Of a stretch of DNA of 38,483 bases, positions 2,691 to 22,682 are shown in pieces. This DNA is from a virus. Within the stretch, counting starts at the first letter, position 1, and every line of letters starts with the position of its first letter. The DNA lies in IMG/VR virus record IMGVR_UViG_3300044551_000008, positions 1 through 38,483 of that record, one strand, 5' to 3'. The translations under genes were made by a program, and so were the position numbers. The notes below the pieces were generated by a model. The model saw nothing but the letters and a program-made list of their open reading frames with translations. It made no database searches and was not told the origin of the DNA.

Positions 2691-2904
2691 CAACAAATTT
2701 TACAACGTTATCAAATGGGCTGTTTTAACAGCCTTGCCAGCACTTAGTGTATTTATTGGAGTAATTGGCAAAGCCTACGGTTGGGGTGGAACTGATTTAG
2801 CTATCATTACTTTGAATGCATTCACGGTATTCTTGGGAACATTGGCTGGAGTAAGTGCGGTTAAATATAACAATCAGCCAAATGATACGGAGGAAAACAA
2901 ATGA
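2680..2904 (+). CDS. Holin (two TM segments)
   Basis: An internal ATG at 2680 follows AAGGAAGG. The 74-aa product has two hydrophobic helices and a charged C-terminus, and its 3' end overlaps the endolysin start by 4 nt (2901-2904). The longer 2638 start has no RBS. Confidence 0.7.
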
Positions 2905-4190
2905 AAAAAGTAATTAAAAAAGCTGCCATTGGAATGGTAGCTTTCTTTGTTGTCGCAGCAAGTGGACCAGTATTTGCGGCAGTCGGTGACCAAGGGGTGG
3001 ACTGGTCAAAATATAATGGAGATTATGGGAACTTTGGTTATGCTCATGATAAATTTGCTTTTAGCCAAATCGGAGGGACTTACGGTGGAACCTTTGTAGA
3101 CCAAGCCACCTATGAAACGCAAGTAGCTTCAGCAATTGCTCAAGGTAAACGAGCGCACACTTATATTTGGTACCAAGTCGGAGGCTCTCAAGAAGTAGCA
3201 AAAGCAGCACTTGATCGTTACTTACCAAGAATTAAAACACCAAAGAATTCTATTGTAGCTTTGGACTATGAAGGTGGAGCAAGTGGAAATAAACAGGCCA
3301 ATACTGATGCGATTCTTTACGGAATGCGTCGAGTAAAAGCGGCTGGATATACTCCAATGTATTATTCAGATAAGCCTTACACTTTGGCTCATGTCAATTA
3401 TAAGCAAATCATCAAAGAGTTTCCTAACTCATTATGGATTGCGGCTTATCCAAATTATGAAGTAACACCAGTTCCAAACTATAGCTTCTTCCCAAGTATG
3501 GACGGAATTTCAGTATTCCAGTTCACATCAACTTATGTTGCTGGCGGACTTGATGGAAATGTTGATTTAACAGGAATCACAGATAATGGATACGGAAAAC
3601 AGCAAGGCCAAGAAGTTAAACCCGATACTGCTACACCGGCCATTGAAAATGGTAAAGAAGCCAATGAAGTTAAAGGAAACGATGTAGAAGTTGGAATGAC
3701 GGTTAAAGTAAACTTTGGCGCTAAGAATTATGCCACAGGAGAAACAATTCCTCAATGGGTAAAAGGTCAACCACATAAAATCATCCAGAAGAATGGAGAT
3801 ACTGTCTTGCTTGATGGTATTATGAGCTGGTTATCCGTTCATGATGTGGAAACTATTGATGCTTCTACAAGCCAGCCAACGACACCCGCAAAAAGTTATA
3901 TTGTAAAACAAGGTGATACACTTAGTGGGATTGCTTCAAATTGGGGCACAAACTGGCAAGAATTAGCACGTCAGAACAATTTATCCAATCCTAATATGAT
4001 TTACTCTGGTCAGGTTATCCGCTTCACAGGCGGTCAATCTGGGGCTACAGCACGAACTTACACCGTACGCTCAGGCGATAATCTTTCATCAATTGCCAGT
4101 CGCTTGGGAACAACAGTTCAAAACTTAGTTTCAATGAATGGTATTTCAAACCCTAATTTGATTTATGCTGGTCAAACATTAAACTATTAA
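2901..4190 (+). CDS. lys: Endolysin: Sec-type signal peptide + GH25-like muramidase + SH3-like linker + 2x LysM
   Basis: The N-terminus [26 protein letters not shown]|AV looks like a signal peptide. [17 protein letters not shown] fits GH25. Two LysM repeats are present ([13 protein letters not shown].., [13 protein letters not shown]..). Confidence 0.85.
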
Positions 4191-4196
4191 AATTAA

Positions 4197-4221
4197 ACCC
4201 CGCTTCGGCGGGTATTTTTTT
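4197..4221 (+). terminator. Intrinsic terminator after the endolysin
   Basis: Stem CCCCGC/GCGGGG with a TTCG loop (4199-4212), followed by a T7 run. Confidence 0.8.
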
Positions 4222-4249: not shown

Positions 4250-4771
4250 ATGAAAGAGAAAACCACTTTATATCATGTTAATACACATGCTAAGGTTAAT
4301 AATTTAATTGATAATAATGAGTTGAATATCAGTGTACATGAATCGGATAATCAATATACAGGAACTGGTATGTATTTTTGGGATAATAAGGGGAATGCGA
4401 ATTATTGGTTAGGTGAGAAGCTGAAACACGAAAGTAAGAAGAACCTATGTCTTTTAGTTATATCTGCTGAATATTCTACAGATGAATTATTAGATTTGAT
4501 GGATTATGCTCAGGAAAAAGAGTATCAAAATATTTTATCAAGGTTGTCAAAAATAGGTGTGTTCAGTGGTAAAACTCTTGGAGAAAAAGTAGATTATTTA
4601 TGTGACTATTTAGGATGTAAGCTTGTTAGATCCTTGACATACTATCCAGGTACCCCGCAGACGAATTTATTAGAACAGAGTAGAGTAACAAACAAGTCTA
4701 AGGTTATCTATTGTATAAAGCCTGGTCATTATGATATAATCAAGTCAAAGCATAAGGAGGTGTTTCAGTGA
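4250..4771 (+). CDS. Hypothetical 173-aa protein; possible ADP-ribosyltransferase-fold (PARP/DarT/Tpt1/DUF3990-like) candidate toxin
   Basis: Long ORF in the moron slot. The N-terminal TLYHVNT, then ISVHES and GTGMYFWD, resemble the beta1/beta2 motifs of H-Y-E / H-H-h ART enzymes. This is motif reading only. Confidence 0.6.
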   Translation: MKEKTTLYHVNTHAKVNNLIDNNELNISVHESDNQYTGTGMYFWDNKGNANYWLGEKLKHESKKNLCLLVISAEYSTDELLDLMDYAQEKEYQNILSRLSKIGVFSGKTLGEKVDYLCDYLGCKLVRSLTYYPGTPQTNLLEQSRVTNKSKVIYCIKPGHYDIIKSKHKEVFQ

Positions 4772-5034
4772 TGGACATGTTAACTAAATTGAAAATGCTA
4801 TCTGCTCAGTTAGACAATCCAAGCTTTGCTAAGGAATTCTCTGAAGGTTTTGAAGAGTTCCTAGGCGATAAATATGTGAGTGAATTTGATAAGACTATAT
4901 CTTTTGAAGTCGTGTGTAATTTTGATGACACATTTTCAAATGATGAAGATGTAAAAAACAAGGCAGGCCTTTTTGAACCTAAGCCACTTGTATTTTCCAA
5001 CATGTTTGATATCGAGATTGTTGAAGCTGCTTGA
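4771..5034 (+). CDS. Small acidic protein (87 aa from ATG 4771); candidate antitoxin/partner
   Basis: AAGGAGG lies 10 nt upstream of ATG 4771. The start overlaps the upstream stop (GTGATG), which suggests translational coupling. The product is rich in D/E with a hydrophobic C-terminal tail LVFSNMFDIEIV. Confidence 0.6.
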   Translation: MDMLTKLKMLSAQLDNPSFAKEFSEGFEEFLGDKYVSEFDKTISFEVVCNFDDTFSNDEDVKNKAGLFEPKPLVFSNMFDIEIVEAA

Positions 5035-5057: not shown

Positions 5058-5471
5058 ATGGAAGCTCCAGTTATTGAATTTAAAAGTTATGAAATAAAAA
5101 AAATAAATTATGTTCTTCTTACAGAAGAGGAAGGTGAAAAAGCCAAAATGAAGTTTTTGGTATCGGGCGCTTTATCTGATGATGCAGAAGCTGGCATAGT
5201 AACATTAGACATAAGTCTTCCGCAAAAAGAACAGAAGAGAAAAATCGACGTTATTCTTTCTGGATACTTTAGATTCAGAGAAGATTTGACATCAAACGAA
5301 GAAAAACATCAATATTTAAGCGTTAATGGGACTGCTATCTTGTTGCCTTACCTTAGAGCGACAGTATCAATGATATCAGTGTTAGATAAAAATGAAGCAA
5401 TAGTTTTTCCAACATTGAATATTGCAGAACTCATGAAAAAGTCTAAAGAAAATGGTGAAGATGAAAATTAG
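5058..5471 (+). CDS. SecB-like chaperone (137 aa)
   Basis: VNGTAILLPYLRATVSMISVL..FPTLNIAELM aligns by eye with the SecB hallmark [35 protein letters not shown]. The tail is acidic, as in SecB. Confidence 0.6.
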   Translation: MEAPVIEFKSYEIKKINYVLLTEEEGEKAKMKFLVSGALSDDAEAGIVTLDISLPQKEQKRKIDVILSGYFRFREDLTSNEEKHQYLSVNGTAILLPYLRATVSMISVLDKNEAIVFPTLNIAELMKKSKENGEDEN

Positions 5472-5603: not shown

Positions 5604-5705
5604 TGTTATAATAATGGAATCATGAATGCTATTCCAATTACAAATACAAATAGCTAAGTGTTTATGAAGAGATAAAGCGCCCTTTTCCAAAGCGAGGGCG
5701 TTTTT
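5604..5705 (+). ncRNA. Mini-cassette 2 (candidate ~85-nt sRNA)
   Basis: TGTTATAAT at 5604-5612. Internal hairpin TGGAAT/ATTCCA at 5615-5636. Terminator CGCCC..GGGCG at 5678-5700 plus T5. Confidence 0.4.
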
Positions 5706-5727
5706 CTTTACAACGGAAACAGTAAAT

Positions 5728-5806
5728 TGTATAATAATTTTATCCTTTTACATAAGGTTATAAATAACTCCGAGAACATCGTTTTGACTAAGTGACGGTG
5801 TTTTTT
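5728..5806 (+). ncRNA. Mini-cassette 3 (candidate ~65-nt sRNA)
   Basis: TTGTATAAT with TATAAT at 5730-5735. Hairpin at 5741-5760. Terminator stem at 5775-5802 plus T6. Confidence 0.4.
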
Positions 5807-5831
5807 ATTTGAAAACGAATACAAAAAGTAG

Positions 5832-5888
5832 TATAATGAATTCATCTTACCTATATAAGATAACGTCTGCCCTTAAACAGGGCTTTTT
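5832..5888 (+). ncRNA. Mini-cassette 4 (candidate ~45-nt sRNA)
   Basis: TATAAT at 5832-5837. Perfect hairpin ATCTTA/TAAGAT at 5844-5861. GCCC/GGGC hairpin at 5869-5883 plus T5. Confidence 0.35.
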
Positions 5889-5933
5889 GTTCTAGTTAAG
5901 GAAGTAGATATATACTATATTTACCCAAAAATA

Positions 5934-5991
5934 TATAATTTTTCATAAAGTTTACTCCGAGCGTCCCTCTCCTAACTGGGGCGATTTTTTT
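5934..5991 (+). ncRNA. Mini-cassette 5 (candidate sRNA; weakest promoter)
   Basis: TATAAT at 5934-5939 without a TG. Terminator at 5962-5983 plus T7. It shares ACTCCGAG before its terminator with cassette 3. Confidence 0.3.
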
Positions 5992-5992
5992 A

Positions 5993-6070
5993 TGCTATAA
6001 TATAGTCGGGATGTTTGTGAGATTTCATCCTATTCCTAGAGTCAAGCCATTCTTCGGAGTGGCTTTTTTT
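5993..6070 (+). ncRNA. Mini-cassette 6 (candidate ~63-nt sRNA)
   Basis: TGCTATAAT at 5993-6001. Hairpin GGATG/CATCC at 6009-6030. Terminator at 6045-6064 with a C(UUCG)G tetraloop plus T7. Confidence 0.4.
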
Positions 6071-6085
6071 ATTTATTAAAAAAGT

Positions 6086-6204
6086 TGTATAATAGTTTTA
6101 GTGGATGAGAAAAACATTCATTTACAAACACTTGATAATCTGCAGTTCCGTCCACATATATCTAATATAATAATCAAGATATGTGCTGCAGATTGTCATA
6201 TTTT
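6086..6204 (+). ncRNA. Mini-cassette 7: promoter + leader containing a long inverted repeat, reading into the tRNA-like element
   Basis: TGTATAAT at 6086-6093. A 12-bp inverted repeat lies at 6134-6145/6186-6197. There is no strong terminator before 6205. Confidence 0.35.
6134..6197. repeat. Inverted repeat GATAATCTGCAG ... CTGCAGATTGTC with inner CACATAT/ATATGTG arms
   Basis: 12 bp pair (one G-T) around a 40-nt interior that has a second 7-bp stem. The loop contains TATAAT (6166-6171). Confidence 0.75.
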
Positions 6205-6265
6205 GGTTCTTTAGCTCAGTTGGTAGCTAACCGTTCGGTCGCTGGTTCGAGTCCAGCAAGAACCA
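6205..6265 (+). ncRNA. tRNA-like element (61 nt) with perfect acceptor stem and T-arm, partial D-arm, and no anticodon arm
   Basis: GGTTCTT/AAGAACC forms a 7-bp acceptor stem. TAGCTCAGTTGGTAG is a D-arm consensus. GCTGG-TTCGAGT-CCAGC is a T-arm. Only about 11 nt (ACC-GUUC-GGU mini-hairpin) stand where 22-23 nt would be expected. Confidence 0.7.
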
Positions 6266-6278
6266 TAAATAAAATGTA

Positions 6279-6312
6279 TATAATAGTAGAAACTCCTTAA
6301 AAGGAGTTTTTT
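6279..6312 (+). terminator. Mini-cassette 8 / terminator hairpin abutting attP
   Basis: TATAAT at 6279-6284, then stem AACTCCTT/AAGGAGTT at 6291-6308 plus a T run. The resulting transcript would be little more than the hairpin. Confidence 0.5.
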
Positions 6313-6351
6313 AGTTACCTTAATTGAAATAAACGAAATAAAAACTCGCAA
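6296..6351. other. attP: attP of the TP901-1 serine integrase (core TCAATTAAGGTAA on the - strand at 6315-6327)
   Basis: AAAGGAGTTTTTTAGTTACCTTAATTGAAATAAACGAAATAAAAACTCGC matches my recollection of the minimal TP901-1 attP. It lies immediately 3' of int. Confidence 0.8.
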
Positions 6352-7809
6352 TTAAGCGAGTTGGAATTTAAATATGATATCTACATTATCAGCAGTAACA
6401 TCAACCTTTGATACAAGGTTGTTGACTATTTTCTTTTTATTATCATATGATAGTTCATTAATCGGAATTGAGCCCAACTGAGTTTTAACTAACTCAAAAA
6501 CATCAGTAGAGTCATTAAATTTATTTTCGCTAATCTTAGCTTTAAGCAGCTTTTTCTCAGCCTGAAGGGAATCAGTACGATCTTTCAACTCATCCATAGT
6601 GATAAAATCATTTAGGTACAAATCAGAGTTCTTTTGTATTTTTTTATCGATCTGTGAAATTTGCTTTTTAAATGACGAAGTATTAATAGTAGGTTGGTTG
6701 TTGCCATTGATAATTTTCAATAAGGAGTCATTATTTTCTTGAAATCCAATCAGGTTGTCAATAACAGTATTTTCTAAATTACTTAAATCATAAGTTCCTG
6801 AATCACACTTTTTATTGTCATTATATACTGTAATTCCTTTTGTTTTTCGAGGAAATCTATTTGCACAGTGATATTTCATAGTGCGGCTTCCATCTTTTCT
6901 TTTGTGGCCAAGAACAATTTTTAAAGGTGCTCCACAGTAACCGCACCTTGCCATCCCTGATAACATATATTTGGCTTGGAAAGGTCTAGGATTGTTGTTT
7001 CTTTCATAAGTCTGCTGTTGTCTTTCTTCTAGCTCTTTTTGAACTTTTAAATAAGTCTCATAAGGGATAATTGGTTTGTGCATACCTTCAAATAGGCTGT
7101 CCTTAAATTTGATATAACCACAGTAAACTGGATTATCAAGTGTTTGTCTTAGGGTACGATAAGACCATGGTATATCTTTACCGATGTGTCCAGCTTCATT
7201 GAGTTTATCTCTTAATTTTGTAAGTGATATTCCTGATAAATAATCAGTGAATATTTGTTCAACTATTGTAGCTTGTAAAGGAACAATTTCTAATATACCT
7301 GTCTTTCTGTTGTGGTAATACCCAAAAGCTGTCTTAGTCCACATCATAGACTTACCAGATTTCGCTCGCCCTAGTTTACCCATAGTCATGCGTTCTTTTA
7401 TATTCTCTCTTTCAAACTCATTAATTGCAGAAAGAATAGTGAGAAACAAGCTACCCATAGCAGAAGAAGTATCAATACTTTCATTAAGCGAGATAAAGTC
7501 TATTTTATTTTTTTTGAACACATCCTTAACAAGATAAAGAGTATCTCTTACACTACGGGAAAGGCGGTCTAGCTTATATACAAGAACTGTATCAAAAGCT
7601 TTATTCTCGATATCGTTGGTTAATCTTTGCATTGCTGGGCGTTCAAGTTTGGCCCCTGAAAAACCAGCATCAGTATAAGTATCAGATACTTGCCACCCCA
7701 TTGCTTCAGCATATTTTGTTAAACGGTCAATTTGCTCATCAATTGAGAACCCTTCCTCTGCTTGGTTAGTAGTGGATACTCGTGTATAGATTGCTACTTT
7801 CTTAGTCAT
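6352..7809 (-). CDS. int: Large serine recombinase (integrase), TP901-1 type, 485 aa
   Basis: MTKKVAIYTRVSTTNQAEEGFSIDEQ... contains the resolvase catalytic Ser motif. The length and sequence match the recalled TP901-1 Int. A C-terminal zinc ribbon (CGYCGAP..) and a coiled coil are present. Confidence 0.93.
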   Translation of the reverse strand: MTKKVAIYTRVSTTNQAEEGFSIDEQIDRLTKYAEAMGWQVSDTYTDAGFSGAKLERPAMQRLTNDIENKAFDTVLVYKLDRLSRSVRDTLYLVKDVFKKNKIDFISLNESIDTSSAMGSLFLTILSAINEFERENIKERMTMGKLGRAKSGKSMMWTKTAFGYYHNRKTGILEIVPLQATIVEQIFTDYLSGISLTKLRDKLNEAGHIGKDIPWSYRTLRQTLDNPVYCGYIKFKDSLFEGMHKPIIPYETYLKVQKELEERQQQTYERNNNPRPFQAKYMLSGMARCGYCGAPLKIVLGHKRKDGSRTMKYHCANRFPRKTKGITVYNDNKKCDSGTYDLSNLENTVIDNLIGFQENNDSLLKIINGNNQPTINTSSFKKQISQIDKKIQKNSDLYLNDFITMDELKDRTDSLQAEKKLLKAKISENKFNDSTDVFELVKTQLGSIPINELSYDNKKKIVNNLVSKVDVTADNVDIIFKFQLA

Positions 7810-22607: not shown

Positions 22608-22682
22608 GTGGCTGCATGGTCAAGGGGTTAAGATACTGCACTTTTAGTGCAGAGGCGTGAGTTCGAATCTCACTCAGTCACA
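22608..22682 (+). tRNA. tRNA-Lys(UUU)-like gene with non-canonical junctions
   Basis: 7-bp acceptor stem GTGGCTG/CAGTCAC (one G-T). Anticodon arm CTGCA-CTTTTAG-TGCAG. T-arm GTGAG-TTCGAAT-CTCAC. GG is present in the D-loop. There is one extra nt at the T-stem/acceptor junction and the D-stem is weak. Confidence 0.55.

Follow-up and report, generated by a model that had tools for sequence, protein, structure and literature searches.

A 61-nt tRNA-like element without an anticodon arm next to the attP site of lactococcal P335-group phages

We have examined a 38,483-nt stretch of viral DNA, namely positions 1 to 38,483 of the IMG/VR record IMGVR_UViG_3300044551_000008 (the whole stretch is hereafter called the window), in which a 61-nt tRNA-like element without an anticodon arm is located at 6205-6265 on the plus strand. 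We designate this element T61 and its intact 74-nt sister allele F74. The window phage is TP901-1-like and closest to phage CAP, and the tRNA cassette is the last unit of the variable region extending from the lysin gene to the phage attachment site (attP). We place T61, which is new, widespread and unannotated, in a known class, that of phage tRNA pseudogenes or tRNA-like remnants. The features at the locus are the following.

6086..6093, plus strand: -10-type promoter element TGTATAAT, recognized from the sequence, with predicted activity.
6098..6204, plus strand: conserved 5' leader of about 105 nt, common to T61 and F74, defined by an alignment of 26 copies (20 distinct leaders).
6133..6198, plus strand: leader hairpin formed by an inverted repeat, from a repeat search and an RNAalifold consensus.
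6205..6265, plus strand: T61, a tRNA-like element derived from tRNA-Ile2(CAU), according to its Rfam score (37.8 bits), its fold and its identity to F74 outside two deletions.
6224..6232, plus strand: the two deletion junctions relative to F74, from the T61/F74 comparison.
6290..6315, plus strand: terminator-like hairpin AAACTCCTT/AAGGAGTTT with a T run after it, from a repeat search; the first sequence in common with TP901-1, on the left side of attP.
6322..6326, no strand: attP core of a TP901-1-type serine integrase, from the 'core, attP' feature of X85213 mapped to the window.
6352..7809, minus strand: large serine integrase with the Pfam domains Resolvase, Recombinase and Zn_ribbon_recom, 99% identical to the TP901-1 int region.

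The sequence of T61 on the plus strand is GGTTCTTTAGCTCAGTTGGTAGCTAACCGTTCGGTCGCTGGTTCGAGTCCAGCAAGAACCA. A preliminary description, made from the letters of the window, had presented this segment as a tRNA-derived element of 61 nt that has kept both ends but lost the anticodon arm, and the Rfam alignment and the comparison with F74 have borne this out. The acceptor stem is perfect, GGTTCTT at 6205-6211 pairing with AAGAACC at 6258-6264 (7/7 pairs); the D-arm consensus TAGCTCAGTTGGTAG and the variable/T-arm segment GGTC-GCTGG-TTCGAGT-CCAGC can be seen as described, and the discriminator A is position 6265, after which CCA is not encoded. As judged from sequence and fold, the T arm (6241-6257) has a 5-bp stem (6241-6245/6253-6257) and a 7-nt loop of the TTCGAnT type (6246-6252). 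The D arm (6214-6216/6225-6227) has an 8-nt loop retaining GG, and of a 4-bp D stem only the canonical pairs G10-C25, C11-G24 and U12-A23 remain after a 3-nt deletion, beside which RNAfold adds U8-A and A9-U. Where the anticodon arm is expected, there is a stub hairpin (6230-6232/6237-6239; ACC/GGU, 3 bp, with a GUUC loop), and neither the 5-bp stem, the 7-nt loop nor an anticodon is present, a 10-nt deletion spanning the loop. The fold predicted by RNAfold is a compact cloverleaf-like four-way junction of -21.4 kcal/mol (z = -3.0).

When the Rfam tRNA model (RF00005) was run, it covered 6205-6265 end to end with 37.8 bits, above the gathering score of 29 (E = 1.4e-4 for the window), and its alignment placed 1 nt of T61 on 11 anticodon-arm model positions. 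ARAGORN did not call T61 in the window, where its sole call was a tRNA-Lys(UUU) at 22608-22682, and a permissive Rfam search of 5700-6700 found no other credible RNA family. In the bIL309 locus (L003, 1853-1913), 61 nt identical to T61 were missed by a gathering-threshold Rfam scan of five loci, in which the same sequence at another locus (L002) was reported; this miss, presumably caused by filtering close to the threshold, illustrates how easily T61 escapes detection.

In phage D6890, a leader of the window type is followed by an annotated 74-nt 'tRNA-Met' (CAT), which is F74: GGTTCTTTAGCTCAGTTGGTCAGAGCTAACGGCTCATAACCGTTCGGTCGCTGGTTCGAGTCCAGCAAGAACCA. T61 equals F74 minus CAG (3 nt of the D loop and D stem) and minus GGCTCATAAC (10 nt), the latter running from the end of the 5' strand of the anticodon stem through the complete loop to one nucleotide past it. 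CAG has been lost between 6224 and 6225, and GGCTCATAAC within 6229-6232, its exact point being ambiguous because of an AAC repeat. As all 61 nt are identical to the matching positions of the D6890 tRNA(CAT) at the same locus, T61 is, on sequence grounds, not a chance match. Among 69 copies, lengths are either 61 nt (60 nt in three copies) or 74 nt without intermediates, and no copy has just one of the two deletions, which argues that T61 arose once.

F74 scores 70.9 bits on the Rfam tRNA model, against 37.8 for T61. It is labelled tRNA-Met in the D6890 GenBank record, as is every intact copy by ARAGORN. Its best E. coli matches are annotated as tRNA-Ile. One of them, a member of a prophage tRNA cluster, was assigned by PGAP as tRNA-Ile, has a CAT anticodon and shares 87% identity with F74 over 69 nt. 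This similarity indicates that F74 is a tRNA of the Ile2 type with a CAU anticodon, and not an elongator tRNA-Met as ARAGORN labels it. A tRNA-Ile2(CAU) reads AUA after its lysidine modification, and AUA is used in the genes of the window phage at 12.2 per 1000 codons, corresponding to 18% of Ile codons. F74 carries the CAU anticodon and is closest to annotated tRNA-Ile(CAT); T61, having no anticodon, does not belong to this type. T61 has been derived from F74 by a disabling change at the orthologous position, as is the case for tRNA pseudogenes. The preliminary description had conceded that its proposal would fail if the element were only a recent, unconserved deletion derivative of a phage tRNA gene, and in part this is what we have found: it is a deletion derivative. 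A scan of genome contigs for a host origin of F74 used a T-arm pattern that is generic across bacteria (Met/Ile2, Asn, Arg, Lys and others), and no Lactococcus was among the matches listed.

The recurrence of T61 in other lactococcal phages has been confirmed for P335-group phages, both lytic and temperate. In GenBank phages, 34 of 40 records have the full element and the remaining six match its 3' 38 nt alone; one of these six, D6890, carries F74, and the others are 98101-98104 and 49801. The IMG/VR collection contains 30 copies of T61, 13 of F74 and 7 of other forms. In metagenomes, we counted leader-anchored copies, i.e., those retrieved via the leader and therefore unbiased for the element, and obtained 16 of T61, 6 of F74 and 2 of a third type. 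T61 is commoner than F74 in all three collections. The GenBank records with T61 include the lytic phages P335, ul36 and P335ev and the D-series whey isolates, as well as the temperate TP712, bIL286, bIL309, CAP, 63301 and proPhi2/4/7. None of the 34 records carrying the full element annotates it, and about 34 sequenced lactococcal phage genomes, including P335, ul36, TP712, bIL286, bIL309 and CAP, can now be regarded as carrying an unannotated T61. In the literature, we have found no description of an anticodon-less phage tRNA; the sole trace is the drawing of prophage phiKW2, which shows a 'predicted unspecified tRNA' between lysin and attR (PMC3757294) and in which this tRNA is probably our element. 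One metagenome contig (L213; OMJG01008449.1, 2580 nt) has two T61 copies about 2.4 kb apart, one of which is cut by the contig start and the other of which is a T20A variant.

The cassette is not universal. TP901-1 has no tRNA cassette; ORF54, ORF55 and a Fic protein precede attP instead, and it is homologous to the window from about 6288 onwards. Several loci keep the upstream unit but have no tRNA cassette, and about half of the P335 records matching the region (40/86) are without it. Absence from close relatives, which the preliminary description had named as evidence against a working element, has thus been found in part, TP901-1 being without T61.

As for the expression signals, the preliminary description had placed a promoter before the whole unit. 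TGTATAAT is present at 6086-6093 on the plus strand, but a recognizable -35 box is absent, and because of this absence the element is not listed by a two-hexamer promoter scan. TATAAT or a one-mismatch variant occupies this position in 26/26 aligned copies of the window-type leader, and TGTATAAT probably drives a transcript composed of the leader and the tRNA-like element. T61 and F74 occur behind the same leader and promoter types: the one of about 105 nt with the inverted repeat, found in the window; one of about 35 nt with a TCTCCG/CGGAGA hairpin, found in bIL309; those of about 70 nt and about 95 nt; and others. The lengths and hairpins of the alternative leaders (about 35-95 nt) are estimates read by eye from the sequences. 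A TGnTATAAT-like -10 element was found in each readable leader type, so that a -10-type promoter belonging to the tRNA-like element has been seen in at least five unrelated leader contexts.

Within the window-type leader, whose nucleotide diversity is about 0.13, an inverted repeat of 12 bp (6134-6145/6186-6197) with CTGCAG in each arm had been pointed out; the repeat is there, but it consists of 11 Watson-Crick pairs and one T/G pair. It extends at 77% complementarity to 6124-6145/6186-6207, and the second inner stem can be assigned to 6155-6163/6177-6185. What cannot be upheld is its attribution to the truncated unit, as the repeat belongs to the leader of about 105 nt that also stands before F74 and is not specific to T61. 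In 20 distinct leaders, 99% of the cells of the hairpin are paired, and none of the 16 pairs of the RNAalifold consensus has a compensatory change. Covariation in the hairpin together with a candidate long-range helix (6101-6107/6149-6155) was tried and rejected, 49 of 500 shuffles reaching the observed score; the sole double-change pair, 6106/6150 in the latter helix, appears as U-A, U-G and C-G. The upstream inverted repeat is therefore real and conserved, without covariation support.

We have compared the variation of T61 with that of F74 and of the leader. In leader-anchored copies, T61 (22-25 haplotypes) has 13 segregating sites in 61 positions (7 of them singletons) against 27/82 for its leader (p = 0.14), and F74 (n = 9) has 2 in 74 against 29/82 (p = 1e-7). 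When T61 was subsampled to n = 9 in 5000 draws, the mean was 7.4 segregating sites and never two or fewer. The variable sites of T61 are evenly spread, with 8/31 in acceptor/T-arm positions and 5/30 elsewhere according to our own tally from the position list. Among 49 copies, six independent mutations (G1A, G2A, G56A, C38A, G40A and a 1-nt T-stem deletion, in T61 numbering) break acceptor- or T-stem pairs and affect 9 copies (about 18%), three further stem mutations produce wobble pairs, and no compensatory change was found. An apparently invariant 3' half, with zero diversity over the 3' 29 nt, was discarded as largely an ascertainment effect of the 29-mer search pattern; 6 of the 16 leader-anchored metagenome copies of T61 differ in the 3' block. 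The claim that the acceptor/T-arm half is under functional constraint is not supported by these data, since pairs are broken at a rate about equal to or above that in F74 and the variable sites are evenly spread. In our reading, the constraint on T61 is weaker than that on the intact tRNA and not demonstrably above that on the neighbouring non-coding leader, which does not amount to proof of neutrality. The difference from the functional copy is strong in the leader-anchored sample and modest when contexts are pooled, and the copies are phylogenetically non-independent.

On the other side of the element, a serine integrase gene with attP downstream of T61 has been confirmed. The distance of 30 bp from attP given by the preliminary description fits only the edge of a minimal attP, whose size we take as an assumption; the annotated 5-bp core begins 57 nt past T61. 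The terminator-like hairpin at 6290-6315 is not listed by a terminator scan because its loop is of 2 nt. T61 is not an att-site remnant, as had been stated: both tRNA ends are present, the att cores of the phages carrying it are located after it, and a tRNA(CAU) gene is not among the seven known P335 integration sites (PMC3757294). In phages carrying the phiKW2-type module, the att core of that type follows the element. T61 and F74 precede the same set of at least ten different downstream sequences, which are different attP-int modules or host flanks, and homology between phages ends within a few nucleotides of the 3' end of the element. The T-stem variant GCTAG occurs in both T61 and F74 copies, which points to recombination within the gene. 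Taken together with the common leaders and downstream types, this variant indicates numerous rounds of reshuffling of alleles and flanks by recombination. Integrase modules are shuffled among P335 phages generally, and the integrase type is unlinked to the phage group (PMC3757294).

Three partly deleted copies have also been found. In locus L005, a 374-aa open reading frame (ORF; 3073-4197, plus strand) replaces the leader and the 5' half of the tRNA and, at the junction TCATAACCG, stops in the former anticodon loop, the TAA stop codon being part of its CATAA; it has no match in Pfam, PHROG or PADLOC, and it is followed by a phiKW2-type att core and then by a host NMO-family gene. Locus L036 has the junction AACCGTTC, and locus L023 has lost the 5' part. 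The first two suggested that the 3' half could be the att core of phages integrating in a tRNA(CAU) gene. We rejected this possibility because the sequence that follows corresponds to the att core published for the phiKW2 type or to the attP arm of the bIL309 type, because none of the seven P335 sites is tRNA(CAU), and because the 5' parts have been replaced by other genes.

In some phages, the position is occupied by other tRNAs whose acceptor stem and T arm are those of F74 and T61. A second type of tRNA(CAT), which differs in its D and anticodon stems (CCCCG/CGGGG) and scores 60.5 bits in Rfam, was found at L033b, L182, L184, L234 and L250. At L033 (8634-8707 and 12813-12886), both tRNA(CAT) types are present 4.2 kb apart, the F74-type copy being damaged (G10A, G31T). 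Contig IMGVR_UViG_2878865731_000001, which also has an F74 copy (L045, 916-989), carries a well-formed tRNA with the anticodon TTA (L183, 3137-3210, minus strand; 67.9 bits) that is called 'tRNA-Stop' by ARAGORN; it combines the F74/T61 acceptor stem and T arm with a tRNA-Lys-like body behind a short leader of the bIL309 type, and as judged from its anticodon it would read the UAA stop codon. The common acceptor/T-arm half joined to other bodies could reflect either patchy gene conversion at universal motifs or selection on the constant half.

We also mention several neighbouring features. Between the lysin gene (2901-4190) and a region of putative small RNAs, there is a three-gene operon (4250-4771, 4768-5034 and 5058-5471, plus strand) matching PADLOC PD-T4-9_A (1.8e-6) and PD-T4-9_C (2e-19). 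The PD-T4-9 system corresponds to CmdTAC, a toxin-antitoxin-chaperone defence in which the toxin is an ADP-ribosyltransferase acting on mRNA (bioRxiv 10.1101/2024.02.24.581848), and the operon is likely to be a phage-borne CmdTAC/PD-T4-9-like defence operon. A functional link between it and T61 is not proposed, because T61 occurs without those genes in most phages. Upstream of the cassette, three mini-units (5809-5883, about 5925-5990 and about 5993-6072, plus strand), each with a -10 element or a full promoter and a terminator hairpin 40-70 nt later, look like small-RNA genes; the terminator of the third occurs in 27 IMG/VR loci. A transcriptome paper on MG1363 by differential RNA sequencing (dRNA-seq) reports 28 small RNAs in prophage intergenic regions. 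The tRNA-Lys(UUU) at 22608-22682 (plus strand) called by ARAGORN is intact and scores 48.9 bits in Rfam. PARIS cleaves tRNA-Lys, and PARIS systems are active in lactococci (PMC13064643), so that a role of this tRNA in counter-defence is conceivable.

The explanation that we favour, and whose chance we regard as approaching an even one, is that T61 is a non-decoding pseudo-tRNA, probably still transcribed, which has been spread by recombination through the P335 pool. The ancestor would have been F74, a 74-nt tRNA of the Ile2 type with a CAU anticodon and its own promoter and leader, occupying the final place in the region from the lysin gene to attP. Two internal deletions in a single ancestor would have removed C20a-G22 of the D arm and G30-C39 including the whole anticodon loop. 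What remained would be the acceptor stem and T arm together with a D arm of 3 bp and the nucleotides of the variable region. Since neither the promoter and leader nor the two tRNA ends have been lost, the RNA is probably still transcribed and possibly matured at its ends, with trimming by RNase P and RNase Z and addition of CCA. It would be unable to read a codon and would be without the anticodon needed by isoleucyl-tRNA synthetase (IleRS), methionyl-tRNA synthetase (MetRS) and TilS. The allele would then have spread over many leader and attP-int backgrounds of the recombining P335 pool until it outnumbered F74, and would now evolve under weaker constraint than F74, presumably without a selected function. 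In favour of this explanation we count the derivation from F74, the leader and downstream types common to both alleles, the segregating sites and broken pairs of T61, and the accessory and decaying state of the cassette, as seen in its absence from TP901-1 and several loci and in the partial deletions in L005, L036 and L023. T61 gives the impression of a relic that is tolerated rather than of a novel RNA tool that has been proven. The locus can show how a small accessory tRNA cassette beside attP evolves in a mosaic phage population, a loss-of-function allele having become the majority in many backgrounds.

Several observations weigh against the relic explanation. One loss-of-function haplotype dominates three independent collections, instead of several broken alleles, and this dominance is more readily reconciled with a sweep or a benefit than with plain drift; the founder sequence alone accounts for 57% of T61 copies. 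T61 has been retained in strictly lytic phages, e.g., P335 and ul36, and its -10 promoter has been kept in at least five unrelated leader contexts. The fold remaining after the deletions is stable and compact and retains U8, A14, G15, G18, G19 and C48. T61 is somewhat less variable than its own leader, and in the unbiased 5' part with all contexts pooled, theta_W is 0.060 per site for T61 and 0.038 for F74, a modest gap. The acceptor and T stems are fully paired in 82% of T61 copies, similar to 85% of F74 copies.

The main rival explanation, which we consider possible but doubtful, is that T61 is a selected non-decoding RNA acting via its acceptor/T-arm half. Transcribed from a promoter of its own, processed by RNase P and RNase Z and provided with CCA, it would accumulate uncharged and compete for or soak up a factor recognizing the acceptor end or elbow of tRNAs, such as an acceptor-end-modifying defence toxin of the AbiEii/MenT-type nucleotidyltransferases or a tRNA-processing or tRNA-modifying enzyme. 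Besides the dominance of T61 in all three collections, its presence in lytic and temperate phages, the retained promoter and the compact fold with its tertiary-core nucleotides, the fact that the second CAU tRNA and the UUA tRNA join their own bodies to this acceptor stem and T arm speaks for such a role. The toxin family of AbiE adds nucleotides to tRNA 3' ends. Defences targeting tRNAs are present in lactococci (AbiE, PARIS, Hesat), and AbiE is listed as inactive on P335 phages (PMC13064643). However, this link is only correlative, being drawn between entire phage groups, and AbiE does not affect c2-type phages either (PMC13064643). The acceptor/T-arm positions are as variable as the remnant positions, six independent mutations break their pairs with zero compensatory changes, and many P335 phages, TP901-1 included, live without the cassette. 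The stronger form of this idea, that P335 phages keep and preferentially spread T61 as a separate small RNA, matured like a tRNA and acting as a decoy or competitor for host factors that recognize its acceptor/T-arm half, with AbiEii/MenT-type toxins or tRNA maturation and modification enzymes as candidates, so that the loss of the arm was adaptive and the constant acceptor/T-arm half is selected, appears to us rather unlikely. If true, T61 would be the first functional example of an anticodon-less tRNA mimic encoded by a phage, and it would be relevant because several lactococcal defences (AbiE, PARIS, Hesat, Septu) act on tRNAs. The preliminary description had suggested a decoy or sensor for enzymes recognizing the acceptor/T-arm half, and this step from anatomy to a working RNA is not supported.

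We regard as improbable the possibility that the element matters as DNA, its RNA being irrelevant and the tRNA ends, especially the 3' 29-37 nt, serving as a homology block that borders attP-int and promotes module exchange. The abrupt end of interphage homology at the 3' end before at least ten downstream modules, the independence of integrase type from phage group (PMC3757294) and three independent rearrangement junctions in or beside the anticodon region (T61, L005, L036) would fit this idea. However, integrase modules are shuffled anyway (PMC3757294) with about half of the region-matching records (40/86) having no cassette, the 3' invariance is partly an ascertainment artefact, as the 6 differing copies among 16 indicate, and a linker role would be a by-product and not a selected function. 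The least probable case is that the tRNA-like part is a processing signal of the MALAT1/mascRNA type, whose cleavage by RNase P, for which the anticodon arm is dispensable, would free the structured leader (about 105 nt here) at its 5' side as a functional small RNA: the conserved leader with its almost fully paired hairpin in 20 variants, the possible long-range pair 6106/6150 and the looser demand on the tRNA-like part, which would fit the apparently relaxed constraint on T61, are in its favour, but T61 and F74 also stand behind at least four other unrelated leaders of an estimated 35-95 nt, and the covariation in the leader is not significant (49/500 shuffles).

Lastly, we compare T61, taken as a pseudo-tRNA relic, with known systems. 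The tRNA-like domain of transfer-messenger RNA (tmRNA) combines an acceptor stem and T arm with a remnant of the D loop but has no anticodon arm, and it is accompanied by a G3-U70 pair, an mRNA-like tag domain and pseudoknots. T61 resembles it as a tRNA mimic without an anticodon arm, but has U3-A70 in place of the G3-U70 alanine identity pair and neither an mRNA-like domain nor a tag, and the ARAGORN and Rfam scans of the window gave no tmRNA match. In mammals, mascRNA (61 nt) and the MEN-beta tRNA-like RNA combine an acceptor stem and T arm with a reduced anticodon arm, and they are located at the 3' end of a longer transcript; T61 is like them only in size and layout, and by analogy its maturation by RNase P, RNase Z and CCA addition is plausible, but there is no homology, the domain of life is different, and the leaders upstream of T61 differ between contexts. 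The tRNA-Other of Bacillus cereus keeps a full cloverleaf, unlike T61. It is reported to be a pseudo-tRNA with a regulatory role (PMC3399842), and it resembles T61 in being tRNA-derived, outside translation and beside a mobile-element integration region. The tRNA-Ile2 genes of phages, such as those of the E. coli lambdoid prophage clusters, are related to T61 through F74, every retained nucleotide of T61 being the same as in F74; in contrast to them, T61 has no anticodon stem-loop and a 3-bp D stem, and can have neither decoding nor anticodon-based recognition. The pseudogenes or 'undetermined' tRNAs of phages and prophages are similar to T61, which came from a functional tRNA by disabling deletions and is probably under relaxed constraint. 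Unlike such pseudogenes, T61 outnumbers its intact allele, has been found in numerous recombinant backgrounds and has lost neither its two ends and T arm nor its promoter.

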